In this document: positions 7,368 to 64,000 of the stretch, piece by piece
Numbering within the stretch: the stretch's first letter is position 1
Layout: each line of letters begins with the position of its first letter
Assembly (NCBI GenBank): GCA_035221665.1
Contig: CM069142.1
Span: 35,464,001-35,528,000 of the forward strand
DNA: 64,000 nt
DNA from: Okamejei kenojei
Lineage: Eukaryota
Direction of reading: 5' to 3'
Position numbers and translations under genes: made by a program
Notes under the pieces: generated by a model
Database searches by the model: none
What the model saw: only the letters and a program-made list of their open reading frames with translations
Told to the model about the DNA's origin: nothing

Positions 7368-7450
7368 CAGTCTGATGAAGGGTCTCGACCCGAAACGTCA
7401 CCCATTCCTTCTCTCCAGAGATGCTGCCTGTCCAGCATTTTGTGTCTACC
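7368..7450 (+). ncRNA. Penelope-derived short repeat with minimal hammerhead ribozyme-like motif
   Basis: CTGATGA-A-GGGTCTCGACCC-GAAAC-GTC at 7372-7399, followed by the cccattccttctctccagagatgctgcctg tail shared by many copies in the window. Confidence 0.6.
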
Positions 7451-10981: not shown

Positions 10982-11664
10982 TAAATTCATTGACCCGTGC
11001 ATACCATAGGCTGCCTTTATCATATATGGTATATATGATATGTCATGCATTTTATATACGCAGCTGATTAGGTGAAAGGCGAGGACTAGGAATGTCCATG
11101 TTGCAACTGAGAGGGTGGGGAGGAGCAAGAACAGAGGTGTGGCGTAATGTGTGAGGGCCTCTTCTATGACAGAAGGGGAATTCCTGTTCCCTAAAGAATG
11201 AGGAATCTCAGATGTACTGGTATGGAAAACCTCCTTCCTCAAATTAGGAGACCAAAACTGCACACAATACTCCAGTTGTGGTCTTGCCAGTGCCCTATAC
11301 AACTGCAGAAGAACCTCTCTACTTCTATACTGAAATCATCTTTTTATGAAGGCCAACACTCCATTAGCTTTACTGTCATCCTGTTGAGTTCCACTGTCTA
11401 TTATCTCATTATCACCTATCCCACAGCCAACAATGGACCATTGTGGGCTCAACATTTTGTTGATTATAATTACTTACTGCATATCTTCCATTCATTTGTC
11501 CTAAGTACCGTCGCTATCTCTCATTCCCCTTTCCCTTCATTCTCAATCTGAGAAGGGTCTCAACCCGAAACATCGTCTATTCCTTTTCTCCAGAGATGCT
11601 GCATAAGCCGCTGAGTTGCTCCATAATTTTGTATCTGTCTTCAGTTTAAACCAGCATCTGCAGC

Positions 11665-22700: not shown

Positions 22701-23865
22701 CAGCTGTACTTAGCTGAGCCAGCATCACAAGCATGCCTGTTATGGATTGTCCCGAGTCTATACTGCACAGTATCCAATCGCACAATCACACAAAAATATT
22801 TAATGTAAACTGGTTACTGTGAAGCAGCATAAATATGTAGATGTACAGGCAGATCTGCTATAACGTGCATTTCCATACTGAGAACTGGATATAACAAGTG
22901 ATTAATTAGGGAATATTATTCATATTATAAGGGACGAATTGGTTATAACATGATTTTGAGTAAACTACAGAATCACTTAAAACATACTCTGAAAATAGGC
23001 AAGCAGAAAAAAAGCCGTCTTGGGTAAAAGAATGTCTGATAAAAAGTTTCAATGCTTTTTAATGTTTTAATGAGAGACCATGTCTCTTAAGAGCACAGCT
23101 GCTTCTTTAATCATGAGTGGTCACTGAAATTGACAATAACTTTTATTGACACATGTGCAATGGTACTCTATTAAACAACCTTTTATATTTTTAGTTTGCA
23201 GCAACAATCAATTATAAAGACATTCATTTTTAAAAAGTTCTATGGAGAAAAATACCTTTTTGCAAGTGTCAAACTCTCTGGTCTCTAACCTGTCTCGACC
23301 CGAAACGTCGCCTATTCCTTCGCTCCATAGATGCTGCCTCACCCGCTGAGTTTCTCCAGCATTTGTCTACCTTCCTTTTCCCAATGACACTCTTGCCTTA
23401 ACAACCCGATTTTCTATAATACTAAGTTTCGTAGGTACACAACTATTGTGAAATAAAAGAACTACCTAATTCTAAGCTACAGAGATACAATTTGGGATGA
23501 GGCCATTTGCAAAAATCAATTTATCTTGTGATTGTTACATGAATATAAAAATATTTGCAGTAAGTTCCAAGATGAATTGTGGAGGCGGTGCAAGTGTATT
23601 TACCCAGGATGACGGCAAGGGAAAGGCTGACACTGTTGTACTAGCGCCACTTTTCCACAGCGCCTTAAAAACAAGATTTAAGTATGCAAGTAACAAAGTT
23701 TCTCCAACATAAATTGCTCACTCCAAACAGAGCTAAACAGGTAAACAAACATGTTGATGAAACTTTCAATATGATCCAATGATTTAGGGGAAAAAACATG
23801 CATGTATGGAAAACTCTGAACGGCATGGTACCGCAGTATTAAGATGTCCTGTTTCACAAACTTAC

Positions 23866-56960: not shown

Positions 56961-58425
56961 CTGAAGTAGAGAGCAGCCCTGAGGTACAGGGGCTTCCTGT
57001 GGGGGAGGATTACTCAGCTGTTATTGCCGTGTGCCCGAGTCATGTCCATTGCTTGGCCCTGCAGTGGTGGGATTACCAGAAATGGTAGTTGTAGCGACGG
57101 GACCCTAGCCTGAGCTCTTTGTCCAGGCTGTGTGAGGGTGAAAGGAGCAGTGATCCACTCGATGGGGGGGGGGGGGGGGGCGCTATTAAAGATGCTAGCC
57201 CTATCCACAAAGCAAGGTGCAGATGTGGGGAAGCTCTGGGTGCTGGTTCAGGGGTGGGGACCTGGGTGTGTTTGTGGACAGGGCCCGTGCAGGTCATGTC
57301 CTCTGTTCAGAGTTTGAGCTTGCCATCCTGGAGGCACAGAAAGTTCCCTTGAATCATGCTTCCCCAAGTCTGGAGATAGCGAGCAATGGCGCTGTGTAGG
57401 CCTTTCTGGTCTGATGCCCAGATTGAAGAGGGTCTTTGCCCTGCTGCCACAAGCACCGCAGCAGAACCCGGGGAGGATCCCTCTGTCACCGTCTTGGGGG
57501 TGGGATCGGGACGGTGGGGCTGGCTGGCTGGCTCACCACCTGCCGCCCGAGCAGGTTGAACATATCGGCCGCTGGCAGTGTTTGTTCGGAGGGTGATGAG
57601 CCACTGTGCCTAAAGAGGGTAAAAGGCCGCCTGGGGGAGTCCAAGAGGAGGGGGACTGGTGGAGAAACTCTGGCCTGTTGATGGGCGGTGGAGGGAGGCG
57701 GATTCACTGGTGGAGGCTCGTGGGGGCTGGAGTAAAGGTACGGGCCAGTGGAAACGGCATCAGCCGCCACAATCAGCCGGGGAGTCAGCGGCAGCAGTGT
57801 CAGTCGCCCCGGGGAGGCAGTGAGGGCCGGCAGAACCAGTGTCAGAGGCGCTGGGGAGGCTATCGATCCAACTATCACTTGCCAGCTTTTGCCCCATTCC
57901 TTTCCCTCATCTGATTCCACCATCTATCTCTCCTCTGCTCCATCAGTCTGAAGAACTGTCCCAATCCAAAATGTCACGTTAATTTCCCTCCACAAATGCT
58001 ACCTGACTGAGTTCATTCAGCCGTTAGTATTTTGCTCTAATACCATCATCTGCAGTCTTGTAACTCTATTTTGTTCTCTGGTACCTTCTTATGTAAACAT
58101 ATTACATAGGTGTAATAGGTACGTAAGCCGCACCTAGCCTCTCTTTTAGTTTTTAAGATGGCAACAACAGAAAAAAGAAAATGTGCTATTTTTCTTTGTG
58201 TCATTTTAGTAGACCTTGCTAAAATGCTTGGAATTAAGACTGTCACACTGGGCTTGAGATCAGAGATACCCAAACTACCCACTTTCATGTTTCCTTTCCT
58301 TCATCTGTTCCTGTATCCCGCCCTATCACATGCAACACTCCTATGATTACATAACACAAATTAACTTTAGGACTTCATATGAGATTACAACTGTTATTAT
58401 TAGTTTAATGATAAGCATATGGTAC

Positions 58426-58584
58426 CTGTTCTAATAGATTCAACCAGCTTTGTATCTTCCTCCATTTCCAGCAGTTTCTTGTAGTAAGTTGGATTATTTT
58501 CCATCTGTCCTTGGGCTCCACTCACAGTCATCCAGATGAGACTACGATATTCATTTGGAATGCCTTTTCTGATATATCGTTTTA
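58426..58584 (-). CDS. GRTP1: GRTP1 (TBC1D6) coding exon, equivalent to human exon 3
   Basis: 159 bp, aaag|TA...ACA G|gtacc. Encodes VKRYIRKGIPNEYRSLIWMTVSGAQGQMENNPTYYKKLLEMEEDTKLVESIRT, the start of the TBC domain. Confidence 0.93.
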
Positions 58585-59960
58585 CTTTTATGGGAATAAA
58601 AGTGATTAATATTTTAAACACATTAACACAATAACACTCAAGATCACCTTCACTGATGGTCTCGACATAACTTTTGAAGTAGTTTTCTCGCTTTTTTAAA
58701 AACAAGTTCAAGGTAATTCTTGAATTAACCAGGATACAGTTGTTTACTATTGGCAATTTATGTACATCCAGAGCAAGTGCTGGTGGTGCCATGACACTAT
58801 TATTGGACATTATTGAAAAGAGAACGTGCAAATGATTAGACATTAGTACTGCGAGTCCTCCTCTTAGCCTCAGCATTATTGTTTTCGAACATGCTCAGCA
58901 GAATTTAACAACAACGACAAGACCATCAGCACTCCAACAAAAATATTGTCTTTCTCTAGAAGTGCAAATATATCTGTATTAAACTCCATTAACCATTCCT
59001 CAGCCCACCTGCCCAACGTGATCAAGATCCTACTTTAATTTTGAATAATCTTCTTCACTATCTATGATGCCACCTACTTTTGTGTAATCTGCAAATCATG
59101 CTTTGTACATTGTTATCCAAATCATTGATATAAATCACAAACAGCAAAGGACTCAGCACTGATCCCCGAGGCACACCACAAGACACAGGCATGACGTCCA
59201 AAAGTAAAATTCCACCATCACCCTCTGCTGTGTTCCATGAAGCTAATACTCTAACCAGTCAGCTAGCACGCCCTGGACCTCATGCAATCTAACATTCCAG
59301 AGCAGGATTGGAAGCTAAAAAATTAACTGAATAAAAATGTCCAAAAAAGATTTGTTATCAATAATGTGACTAAATGGAAAAGTCTCCACACCCATGTTAA
59401 GGCCCCAGGAACACTTTATTCAAGCAAGGTAATGATGTTGCTATTCAGGCTAGAAGTATTTGGCAGAGAAGTCGCTTGATTCTCTTGGAGTTCATGAACC
59501 ATTTTGGGTATGACAAACTTCTTTATTCAGTCATATCTTTTATCTCTGGATGAAAGAGCCTTTCAATTTCAACAGAAGCCCTTCATAAATCCTTTTCCTT
59601 TCTCTTTGGTCAAAAATGAATGAATACCCTGGTATAGTGATATTATATAACTAATTTGGGAGGAAGGAGCTGCAGATCATTTTTTTCCAAAACAGTAGGA
59701 TCTATGTGAACGGGCTTTCAAACTGCTGCCTAGCTGTAGGCTTTCCATATGCCAAGTCAATTGCCACAGTTAAATTTAATTCTTCCCAACAGTAAAATGC
59801 TCACCCACTAAGGTCATCCTCTAGATATTCAACAGAATCTCAGTCCATTTTGCATAATCTGAATAGTATTTACAATCCACAAGTGTTCCCACGTTATAAG
59901 CACCTTCCCAGATTTAACATCTTTCTAACCTCTGATGTATTTATAGCTTATCATATCATA

Positions 59961-59997
59961 TCTATTATATATATCACACCTATATACTTTTAAAACG

Positions 59998-60078
<81 letters not shown>

Positions 60079-61205
60079 GGAGATTTTGCCTTTGAAACGT
60101 ATTTTCTCGAAAACCACTCGCAAAAACGCAGAGATTTTTACATATTTCGGTACCGATTTAACTTATGATATCCTCATAAATTTGATCAATTTGATCCTCT
60201 CTAAATTTGATCAATTATCTCCCCAGATTTTTAATGAAGTTGTTCACAAAGCAGACTGTTTTTTAAAAATCAAACTGCTGCGGCAGCTGCGGACGTACAA
60301 TGCCCTTGCTCGCGGCACCACCCCCCTCCCCCGCTCTCGATTAAAGCAAATGCTCGTAACGCGCACTTTCCACCACCATTCCCCCCCCACCACTGTCATT
60401 TTTTTGCCTCCCGCTGTGCTGCGGACCAAAGATCCAGAGGGAGTAAACCTTCTCATCGCGTGCCCCGCGCGACCATAACGGATGCCGCCGCCCGGCTCGG
60501 CTCTCCTCCACCCCTCCTCATCTCCCTACCTATTGTTTTAAAATATAACTGAATCTGAAGCGACCTGATGACGTCACAATGCCTTTGCTCCTCGCGACCA
60601 GCTGCGCAGACTTTTCAATGCACAGCCAGGAGCTGCGAGTCACGTGGCCCAGCTGCCTCTCCCCACAGTGTCTGGATGGAAGCCCGTGAACATGTGATCA
60701 AGTCGGCCAGCATGCTCTGCTGGGCTTTTTGAAGTTCAACATGGCGGCGGCGGTCGTTATTTTGAAGTTCAACATGGCGCCGCCGTGGACAAGCGCCGTT
60801 GAAAAGTCGCCGTCGCGCCCGTCACAGGGGACGACCTCCTCTGCGTCTCCCCCGCCTGAGTTTGGGAGTGTGTGGTGAGTTTGCTGCCGGCCCTCTGCTG
60901 TTTTTCACAGTCCTCAGAGCGCTGTGGGCCTCGCTCTGGTCAACGATGCTCGCAGCCTACCTCGGGCCTGGTGCCTGATGGGGAGACTTGTGCTCTGCAG
61001 CTTCGTTAGCTGCTGCCTGTATCCCGTCCACATCCCTCTCTACCCCCTCCCCGAGGCAGAGAAAGAGAGAGCGAGCGGGTGGGAAAAAGAGGGGGGGGGG
61101 GGTGGAGGGAGAGGGTCCTTCCTCTCTGCCCCCTCCCTCTCTAGGGAACCCCCCCCCCACCATTTCCCCCTCCTCTCTCTCCCCCCCTCGTGTGTTTGGG
61201 AGGTG

Positions 61206-61289
<84 letters not shown>

Positions 61290-61358
61290 CCGGCCACAGG
61301 CCCCCCCCCCCCCCCCCCCCTCCGCCCTCGTTGAGGGGACGGGACCCCCTTGGTCTAG
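59961..61358 (+). mobile_element. Non-autonomous Helitron-like element with two (TG)n tracts
   Basis: A|TCTAT-like 5' end. 3' GC hairpin (aggggacgggaccccct) followed by tggtCTAG|T at 61355-61359. No TIR or TSD. Confidence 0.65.
59999..60075. repeat. (TG)n microsatellite
   Basis: Pure TG run. A second run lies at ~61209-61288. Confidence 0.98.
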
Positions 61359-62553
61359 TATATACTTGAAAGTCTGATCTTGTATGTGCATGTATTTATT
61401 TGTGTATTTGTTTGTGTATAATCACATCTTCTCGAAAAAACGACGAGCAACATTTTAATATATTCCGGTAGAGATTTATCCCGTGGACTCCGAAATCATC
61501 TCATTACAAAATTTCATGCATTATTTTTTCGAGTTATTAATCAAAATGTTCAAAAATCTCAAAAAACTTGGGGGGAAAATAACTGCTTATTCCCTGTCCT
61601 TAAACCCGTCACACGGTGCGAGTCAACCCACGAGTGACCCCGAGTTTAAAACAAATTAAACTCGTGGTAATCACGTACAATTAACGTAGCGGGAACGTCA
61701 GAACTCAACTTAGTGACTCGTGGCACTAAAGGCAGGTACCAGGGAAACTTGTTAACTCTTGAAAAATGTTAAACATGTTTAAAGATTTCCACGAGTCAAA
61801 TTTACTCTTGAAGTTAAAAATTGAAACATTTAAACTTGTTATAAGAACGTAGTAGCCCGTGAGTTTACCGCAGTGATTCGTGACACTCCATGGACACTCT
61901 TTAATTCAGCAGGCAGGCAGCATCTTTGGAGAGAAGGAATGGGTGACAGGCTGTGTCTCCCTGTCCCTGGGATAGCAGGGGGCGATCAAACAGCACAATA
62001 CCTCCCTCCCCCTCCACGCCAACACGAAAGGCAACAATCCAAAGGCTTTAGCGTCAGAAACAGCGGGCAGGCGACAATCGCCCACCATAACGCGAGAGAG
62101 ATCATGCACTATTGTAGGTCTTCTTTGCACGTCGGTGTTTCTGTCTTTCTCCATCTCAATGCTGGCCCCGTCTGTCGCCACCCCCAACTCTGCTTCCCGG
62201 CCATGTGTGACCCCTACCCATACCTGCCAACTATTCCGATTTGGGCGGAATTCTTCCGATTTTTCCATCCCAATTCCGAATTCCGATTTTTTCCTGCATA
62301 TTCCGAAAAAATTGGAATTCGGAATTGGGATGGAAGCGTGCATGCGACCCATGGCGGCGGCGAGGAGACAGCGAGAGAGCGCACCGCGCCTGCGCCGCTT
62401 ATGGGGACACGCACGGGTGTACGTCAGCACGCAGCCGCATGACCCCGCCCCGCCACGGTGGCGTTCGGCGTCACTTGCCCCCCCCCCGCACTGAGGGGGG
62501 GGGGGGGCAAGTTCACTTTGTTAACGAAGAAACTGCAGATGCTGGAGAATGGA

Positions 62554-62863
62554 GGGTTACACAAAATGCTGGAGAAACTCAGCGGGTGCAGCAGCATCTA
62601 AGGAGCGAAGGAGATACACAAAATGCTGGAGAAACTCAGCGGGTGCAGCAGAAAGTCTGAAGAAGGGTCTCGACCCGAAACGTCACCTATCTCCTTCGCT
62701 CCTTAGATGCTGCTGCACCCGCTGAGTTTCTCCAGCCTTTTGTGTATCTCCTTCGCTCCTTAGATGCTGCTGCACCCGCTGAGTTTCTCCAGCCTTTTGT
62801 GTATCTCCTTCGCTCCTTAGATGCTGCTGCACCCGCTGAGTTTCTCCAGCTTTTTGTGTAACC
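62554..62863. repeat. Inverted/tandem array of a 57-bp Penelope pLTR-derived unit around a hammerhead-like motif
   Basis: About 1.7 units (62554-62651), then CTGAAGA-A-GGGTCTCGACCC-GAAAC-GTC (62657-62684), then 3 reverse-complement units (62688-62858, period 57). Confidence 0.9.
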
Positions 62864-62867
62864 CCCC

Positions 62868-62972
62868 TGAGGTCACTTTCCCGCCCTCACTGACGTCACG
62901 TACCCCGCCCCTTACTGACGTCACTTGCCCCGCCCCTTACTGACGTCACGTGCCCCGCCCTCACTGACGTCA
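62868..62972. promoter_or_regulatory. Tandem array of CRE (TGACGTCA) and GC-box (CCCCGCCC) motifs
   Basis: Perfect TGACGTCA at 62891, 62916, 62941 and 62965 (plus TGAGGTCA at 62868), each separated by a GC box. Period 23-25 bp. Function untested. Confidence 0.55.
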
Positions 62973-63299
62973 GACTAATAGGATTCCGATTTTTCAATCT
63001 CACAAGTTGGCAGGTATGCCTACCCTCCCCTCTCCAGCTCCCCGCCCATTGCACCGGGCGCGGGGGCTTTGCACCGTCTTCACGTCAACAACTGGTCAGT
63101 GCCAGTCGCCCCCGGGCAGGTGCTCGGGGGCTCTCTCCCAGCGTGGCCCCGGACCAGGGGGGTGGGGATGGGAATCAGCGGGCACACTGGCTCTGCCACA
63201 CCATGGGCCGCCGCCAACCAAGCCACCAGTCCATGTCCACACGTTCGGTAGAACAGGAGTTGAGACTGGGAACTGTACCGCCCTTGCTCCCTCCCTCTG

Positions 63300-63856
63300 T
63301 GTTCTGCAGGGGTTGGTGCTGGGGCACTAATCGTCACATAGTATATCCATGATTTGGATGAGGGAAATGAAGGCTTTGTTGCCAAGTTTGCAGATGACAC
63401 AAAAATAGGTGGAGGGGCATGTAGTGCAGAGAATGCAGGGACTCTGCAGAAGGACTTGAATAGGTTTGGAGATTGGGTAAAGAAGTGGCAGATGGAATAC
63501 AGCGTAGCAAAGTGTGAAGTTGTGCATTTTGGTAGTAGGAATAAGCGGAGACTATCTCCAACGCCAGCACATTCTTGCTCAGTTATGCGGCCCAAATGTG
63601 CTCCCAATACGCCAACTGTGGTCTGACCAGTGCCTCTGCATTATATCCCTGTTTTTATATTTTAGTCCTCTAAAAAATAAATGCTAGCATTACAATTGCC
63701 TTCCTTACTACCGATTCGTCTCGCAAATTAACTTTTTGGGAATCCTATACCAGCACTCCCAAGTCCCTTTGAGCCTCCGACTTCTGAATTTTTTCCCCCA
63801 TTTAGAAATATGCCTTTATTCCTATTACCAAAATGCATGACTATACTTTGCTACAC
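63300..63856. mobile_element. CR1 RT fragments in opposite orientations
   Basis: Plus-strand KFADDTKIGG...KCEVVHFGSRN to ~63544. The continuation appears on the minus strand at ~63620-63856. Confidence 0.75.
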
Positions 63857-64000
63857 AAACGGATTGTATCTATGTATGGTACATCTGTTTGGATAGCACA
63901 CAAAACAAAGCTTTTCACTGTATCTCAGTACATTAAATAATAACAAACCTAAACTTAATGTGAGCATTTTCCAACTTTTTAAACCTGTCTTTTTAAGTAG

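Follow-up and report, generated by a model that had tools for sequence, protein, structure and literature searches.

A hammerhead-bearing fold-back in the Okamejei kenojei genome is very probably a Penelope-like insertion spread passively within a MITE

INTRODUCTION

How does a self-cleaving RNA motif come to lie between large inverted repeats, and does it have any part in the spread of the structure that encloses it? These questions are raised by a locus at positions 62,554 to 62,863 of a 64,000-nt stretch of the Okamejei kenojei genome (GCA_035221665.1, contig CM069142.1, positions 35,464,001 to 35,528,000 of the forward strand), which we refer to as the window. A preliminary description, made from the sequence alone, interpreted the locus as a hammerhead ribozyme motif enclosed in a fold-back of 57-bp tandem units and proposed either a recent Penelope-type insertion or a ribozyme-bearing, retrozyme-like non-coding retroelement, captured in a DNA transposon. 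Here, we describe the locus, its parent element and its carrier, and weigh the explanations for its origin.

RESULTS AND DISCUSSION

The core, its arms and the predicted fold

Reading of the sequence confirmed an intact-looking hammerhead core, CTGAAGA-A-GGGT-CTCG-ACCC-GAAA-C-GTC, at 62657–62684. To its right, the 57-bp unit recurs 3.0 times at 62688–62860 with 99% matches (TRF; as assembled), in agreement with the three copies counted previously. To its left, in reverse orientation, lie a full unit (62560–62616) and 35 bp of a second one (62617–62651); the array reported on this side is therefore present, at ~1.6 rather than ~1.7 copies, and the left arm extends beyond the span first noted to 62520, through an element tail of ~34 bp. 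The features of the locus are as follows (window positions):

62213–62218, unstranded: left 6-bp target-site duplication (TSD) of the MITE, CCTACC (from the sequence and sister copies)
62219–63018, unstranded: non-autonomous MITE with 14-bp TIRs at 62219–62232 and 63005–63018, ~450 bp when empty
62473–62512, unstranded: private palindromic change that removed part of the left 13-bp duplication in the window copy only (self-inverted match; other copies keep CTGAGGTCACTTT)
62513–62519, (+) strand: remnant of the left 13-bp duplication from the Penelope-like insertion
62520–62559, (−) strand: left arm, ~34-bp element tail and no-tail end motif, reversed
62560–62651, (−) strand: left arm, full 57-bp unit and 35-bp partial unit, reversed
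62652–62656, (+) strand: head-to-head junction, AA then AGT (159 exact genome matches)
62657–62684, (+) strand: putative minimal type-I hammerhead of the pLTR, predicted cut after 62684 (from the sequence, compared with excerpts of PMC4209133)
62688–62858, (+) strand: right arm, three 57-bp units, the pLTR between the ribozyme and the no-tail end (number varies between MITE copies)
62859–62866, (+) strand: no-tail 3′ end of the element and two extra C
62867–62879, (+) strand: right-hand 13-bp duplication, CTGAGGTCACTTT (one copy only in empty MITEs)
63019–63024, unstranded: right 6-bp TSD of the MITE

The inverted arms pair in alternative registers of 94 nt (98%) or 101 nt (97%), and the fold-back is exceptionally stable (z = −21.3; none of 100 shuffles equally stable). 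The alternative registers proposed earlier for a ~98-bp stem were thus recovered, but the motif does not lie open in the loop, since the CUGA core is paired with the 57-bp unit in the MFE structure. Allowing up to three mismatches, we found five matches to the hammerhead motif in the window versus none in 100 shuffles, and the motif is therefore not a chance occurrence. The Rfam search that the preliminary description had proposed as a check returned no hammerhead family at gathering score in the whole window and none at E ≤ 10 in 58000–64000; the Rfam matches were sub-threshold miRNA hairpin models only. At the head-to-head junction, two untemplated A precede AGT, the usual 5′ end of short insertions of a Penelope-like family, according to a tally of 5′ ends.

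The parent Penelope-like element

Two loci, L231 and L232, hold complete pLTR-ORF-pLTR elements with open frames of 1197 and 1190 aa, respectively. Both carry the hammerhead motif in each pLTR, and the pLTRs are 99.8–100% identical within a copy; the parent element looks recently active. The parent ORF matched RVT_1 (E = 5.1e-6) and GIY-YIG (E = 0.0042) in Pfam, both below the curated cut-offs, and has the linker CNRKKCNTC (Cx4CxxC) between RT and GIY-YIG. A zinc-finger-like CX2-5CxxC linker between RT and EN is given as a mark of Neptune and Nematis in excerpts of PMC8557442, and by this linker the parent appears to be Neptune-like; an ORF with RT, then GIY-YIG, and a Cx4CxxC linker between them is also what the available text of PMC8557442, PMC3846280 and PMC11167929 describes for EN+ Penelope-like elements (PLEs). 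In longer copies of the family, the end of the GIY-YIG ORF lies upstream of the hammerhead motif. The right arm of the fold-back is 96.8% and the left arm (62521–62616) 97.9% identical to the 3′ end of L232, which bears out the Penelope-type origin suggested previously. On sequence comparison, the motif and the 57-bp unit of the window are the pLTR 3′ end of an abundant EN+ Penelope-like element.

Counted as exact pattern matches, 39 nt of the 57-bp unit occur 38,330 times in the genome, and a second pattern of the Penelope-like family occurs 14,575 times. Strict hammerhead cores numbered 30 in 609,500 bases (61 regions at round coordinates), compared with 0.33 after shuffling, which extrapolates to roughly 136,000 in the 2.76-Gb genome. 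The loci tallied in the sections below were mostly fetched by similarity and hence are not unbiased samples. The family has two 3′ ends, with or without a ~33-nt tail. Two reverse-transcription start sites bounding the tail are a feature of EN+ PLEs as well (PMC8557442, PMC3846280, PMC11167929, each in excerpt), the tail of the anole element lying between two such sites (PMC11167929).

Elsewhere in the window, this Penelope pLTR family has left eight older solo fragments (7369–7445, 11547–11663, 23292–23369, 31393–31487, 36138–36172, 48953–49076, 57945–57977 and 61917–61947). At a separate locus, L268 (G000:C1:1952468-1952594), an 88-bp unit that includes the ribozyme forms a head-to-tail dimer, a retrozyme-like arrangement.

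Ribozyme features and predicted competence

The motif has the conserved core, a bulged base before helix II, G10.1-C11.1, a palindromic 15.2-16.2 and NUH, and by these core features would be a minimal type-I hammerhead (min-HHR). With the metazoan PLE min-HHRs described in excerpts of PMC4209133 it shares the CUGANGA and GAAA boxes, an extra base between 9 and 10.1, the G10.1-C11.1 pair, the palindromic 15.2-16.2, the GUC triplet and the lack of a helix III of its own, in keeping with the minimal type-I hammerhead with a palindromic ACGU recognized earlier. Helices II and I measure 4 and 2 bp, compared with 7–8 and 4–5 bp in the Schistosoma families, and a 2-bp helix I has been described for D. 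virilis (PMC4209133). The weak stem I of the preliminary description is thus real: its 2 bp compare with the 4–5 bp expected of a min-HHR, and of 86 copies sampled, 51 have A or C at the third position. Across these 86 copies, all from one genome, the helices showed one-sided changes (U-A/U-G) and neutral CpG decay, with two-sided changes in 1–2 copies per pair.

The hammerhead-competent fold lies 6.6–7.6 kcal/mol above the ensemble in the fold-back and 5.7–7.5 kcal/mol above it in the parent, and because these penalties are similar, the cleavage-competent fold is predicted to be weak in both settings. The idea that the fold-back specifically locks the ribozyme found no support, since the penalty in the parent context is much the same. 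According to the portions of the cited papers available, min-HHRs show no cleavage as monomers and low cleavage as dimers (PMC4209133), and the anole motif needed protein in order to cleave, while insertion in vitro did not depend on it (PMC11167929).

The fold-back is carried by a MITE

The element that encloses the fold-back (62219–63018) is 800 bp long, with 14-bp TIRs and a 6-bp TSD. Its TIR has 1,012 exact genome matches, and among 94 copies with both ends, an exact 6-bp TSD was present in 76, a longer match in 6 and none in 12. The TIRs, the TSD of fixed length and the many near-identical non-coding copies identify this element as a MITE, so that the capture in a DNA transposon proposed earlier holds, with hundreds of filled copies. 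The centre junction of the insert has 159 exact genome matches, and all 30 that were fetched lie inside the MITE, while the right junction has 340; the fold-back thus recurs in other copies of the element, which is what the preliminary description had suggested looking for genome-wide. Thirty right-junction loci comprised 14 with the window-type centre, 15 with a two-motif centre and 1 deleted; both cores, read by eye, are broken in the two-motif centres. The empty site has 239 exact genome matches, and among the 30 best matches to the left half, 7 proved to be empty MITE copies of ~450 bp with a single 13-bp site. Filled copies can be told from empty 450-type copies by two diagnostic bases. 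From one MITE copy to the next, the 6-bp TSDs differ, and the inner 13-bp duplication is constant.

The shared junctions and empty sites argue for a single insertion event that was later rearranged and multiplied by DNA transposition. We conclude that the fold-back is very probably a short head-to-head insertion of a Penelope-like 3′ end that entered the MITE once and then spread passively, its unit behaving like a minisatellite. A single Penelope-like insertion would have entered one MITE copy, and the transposase of the MITE would then have spread it. In this spread the ribozyme would play no part, and alone it would cleave poorly; it is likely a passenger, because a lineage in which neither core is intact has been about as successful. 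The window locus is thus a nested transposon fossil that matters little by itself. It is, however, a clean example of a retroelement fragment with its ribozyme being multiplied ~340-fold by an unrelated DNA transposon and becoming a minisatellite, and it warns that, in such genomes, the products of retrotransposition and of DNA transposition are mixed in counts of hammerheads or hairpins.

The 99% identity of the units might be taken to indicate a fresh Penelope insertion into the MITE copy of the window or an artefact of assembly, both raised in the preliminary description. We consider this next to impossible, as 159 to 340 sites, spread over many contigs, share the junctions of the insert and differ in flanks and TSDs; the insert did not arrive recently at the window locus, being present in hundreds of MITE copies with 6-bp TSDs of their own. 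The near-identity from which youth had been argued stands, but it owes as much to tandem gains and losses of units within the MITE as to youth. Among the assembled contigs of the sequencing runs, no listed piece spans the centre junction by 31 letters on each side.

A retrozyme-like non-coding retroelement, the other origin proposed earlier, would mean that the fold-back is transcribed, cleaves itself and is put back into the genome as an independent unit by the Penelope protein. The intact-looking core, the tandem repeats and the pLTR homology agree with this, and animal non-LTR retrozymes, in the part of bioRxiv 10.64898/2026.07.22.740005 available, are likewise non-coding and pLTR-derived, with a type-I hammerhead and tandem repeats nearby. 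However, the definition in that excerpt needs at least two tandem units, each with a complete ribozyme, whereas the 57-bp unit excludes the motif and the insert holds only one; the fold-back is therefore not a retrozyme. Its mobility also differs, as it moves only inside the MITE ends (centre junction in the MITE in 30/30), with the 6-bp TSDs varying around a constant 13-bp duplication. We regard a retrozyme origin as highly improbable and maintain the passive spread of a single insertion.

Filled copies might also be favoured if the hairpin were a functional RNA, with the CpG-rich MITE driving transcripts, the ~95-bp duplex forming, and anti-Penelope small RNAs or a regulated ribozyme resulting. 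The predicted hairpin is very stable, and of 70 window-type copies, 59 retain an intact core and 11 have a damaged one; selection could have preserved the core, but the youth of the copies explains its state. The excess of filled matches (340) over exact empty-site matches (239) could hint at an advantage of filled copies, although exact-match counts underestimate older empty sites. Conversely, free short inverted insertions of the same sequence are common (60 pairs in the fetched loci), so that the MITE would add little, the lineage with both cores broken spread as well, and the hammerhead fold incurs much the same penalty as in the parent. A functional role for the MITE-borne hairpin thus appears very unlikely, and we retain a passively spread Penelope-like insertion as the preferred reading.

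The mobilizer and the superfamily of the MITE can be assigned only by inference, because five stretches beside TIR matches held no autonomous transposase, only LINE and Penelope pieces. Both hAT6 and IS3EU elements make 6-bp TSDs and have TIRs, as does the MITE, but its termini (CATAC..GTATG) do not fit the TAYGG..CCRTA of fungal IS3EU families as given in excerpts of PMC12730594. Membership in hAT6 is therefore the likelier of the two.

Further details of the MITE were observed. Near its left end lies a hairpin with 31-bp arms within 62263–62335, and near its right end a 25-bp tandem array within 62867–62972 that is rich in TGACGTCA, which we take to be a CRE-like motif. Beyond the right end, a LINE reverse transcriptase fragment with an FADD motif (63340–63550), presumably CR1-like, recurs in other fetched loci. 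Capture of passenger sequence by MITEs is a known kind of event, as are the fold-back layout and the ribozyme type; a search of the literature by titles and starts of abstracts, with Repbase and Dfam outside its scope, found no description of the element or the mechanism.

Layout and possible mechanism of the original insertion

The insert consists of a tailed left arm and an untailed right arm within a 13-bp target-site duplication, which is intact in sister copies, single in empty MITEs and partly erased on the left in the window. An inverted 5′-truncated copy, a one-sided tail and a TSD make up the remnant layout of EN+ Penelope-like elements, and an inverted 5′-truncated copy with a tail on one end is the typical PLE layout in excerpts of PMC8557442 and PMC3846280. 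The likeness to EN+ PLE insertions extends to the hammerhead pLTR, the adjoining of the inverted copy at the 5′ end, a tail of 30–40 bp at one end and a TSD of ~10 bp (PMC8557442, PMC3846280, PMC11167929). Unlike the insertions described in the available text of these papers, the window insert has arms of ~95–130 bp, no ORF, one arm without a ribozyme, an internal 57-bp array and amplification by a DNA transposon. In the window copy, 62473–62512 forms a private quasi-palindrome in which a poly-C tract is mirrored as poly-G; it is absent from the other copies inspected, and such changes are typical of those left by template-switch mutation.

After MITE copies had been filtered out, 60 head-to-head pairs comprised 51 with mixed tails, 8 without a tail and 1 with two; one of the eight tail-less pairs (L004) is in fact a decayed MITE copy missed by the filter. 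Some inverted pairs were fetched on purpose, so the frequencies are not unbiased, but no pair was chosen by its tail state. Among young pairs (both arms at least 90% like L232), a tailed arm was joined to an untailed one in 29/29 and a TSD was found in 24/29; this tail asymmetry suggests twin priming. Of the 10 young pairs that include a long arm, 7 have the untailed arm as the longer one, which disfavours the snap-back of a single tailed cDNA, as the untailed arm would then always be the shorter one. Self-priming on an antisense template, proposed for inverted copies in the part of PMC3846280 available, could still have made the inverted insertions.

The insert is quite possibly the product of a Penelope-specific form of twin priming in which every inverted insertion has exactly one tail, a reading that we put forward tentatively. 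A dimeric Penelope protein would nick both target strands 10–16 bp apart, and the nicked strands would prime two cDNAs, the tail site serving as the start of one and the no-tail site as that of its partner, after which the two cDNAs would join head to head at their truncated ends. Such two-nick, two-start priming would explain both the strict tail asymmetry and the TSD. The anole PLE protein, a predicted dimer, cleaves and extends both strands and uses two start sites, and an in vitro system for PLE insertion exists (PMC11167929, in excerpt). If twin priming is correct, the genome holds thousands of such products, and the family-wide tail asymmetry, together with a clustering of 5′ ends, gives a testable prediction for the open question of how Penelope-like elements insert.

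This clustering was seen in gapped alignments of 50 short young solo copies: 41 begin between −7 and +4 relative to C3, and not one begins at the cut. The pattern suggests that either the RNA has its 5′ end at the edge of the ribozyme or RT stops strongly there. The right arm of the window starts at −3 relative to C3. Under twin priming, the template RNA would begin at the 5′ edge of the ribozyme, and most stubs would be cDNAs of the strong-stop kind. Around the cluster, the sequence presumably agrees with an initiator (CCAGTCT) as well as with a 3′ splice site.

Origin and turnover of the 57-bp array

Among 70 filled window-type MITE copies, a sample enriched for window-like copies, the left arm has 1–3 units and the right arm 0–6. 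Since the number of units varies between MITE copies, the array behaves as a minisatellite. Copies with parent-like bases mostly have one right unit, while up to six are present in the derived lineage, to which the window copy belongs. The tandem junction lies at a TA microhomology and has 242 exact genome matches; it is rare, and all 30 fetched matches were in the MITE, and it therefore arose once.

The unit might instead be the cDNA of the 3′ cleavage product of the ribozyme, running from the cut to the RT start, in which case the array would record cleavage in vivo. The unit does begin 3 nt past the predicted cut, its other end lying 6 nt short of the no-tail end. In addition, of 44 short arms from young inverted pairs, 6 have their first base at +29 to +32 from C3, the cut being at +28. 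By contrast, none of the 50 short young solos starts at +28 to +32, no arm starts at +28 itself, the tandem junction arose once, and the position of the unit is explained by the TA microhomology and a GATA/TATC palindrome. We therefore judge a cleavage-product origin to be unlikely.

The first 57-bp duplication may have come from a template jump at insertion or from template switching in the hairpin soon after. Both arms carry the same tandem junction, an indication that sequence was copied from one to the other, and the duplication would have passed from arm to arm by intramolecular conversion and then expanded by slippage. That exchange within the hairpin happens is shown by L069 (G000:C12:73490755 onward), where the loop with the ribozyme lies in the opposite orientation between the inverted arms.

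Two further forms of the carrier were observed. A ~920-bp MITE lineage (L364, L366 and L383-L408) has a different left half, the common right junction and a two-motif centre with both cores broken. A form of 1.93–2.02 kb was found in 6/6 fetched loci of another group (L121-L126, e.g., G000:C1:110254352-110256341); it adds a two-motif inverted Penelope cassette, ~950 bp of other DNA and a second left junction, and was likely produced by template-switch capture during gap repair.
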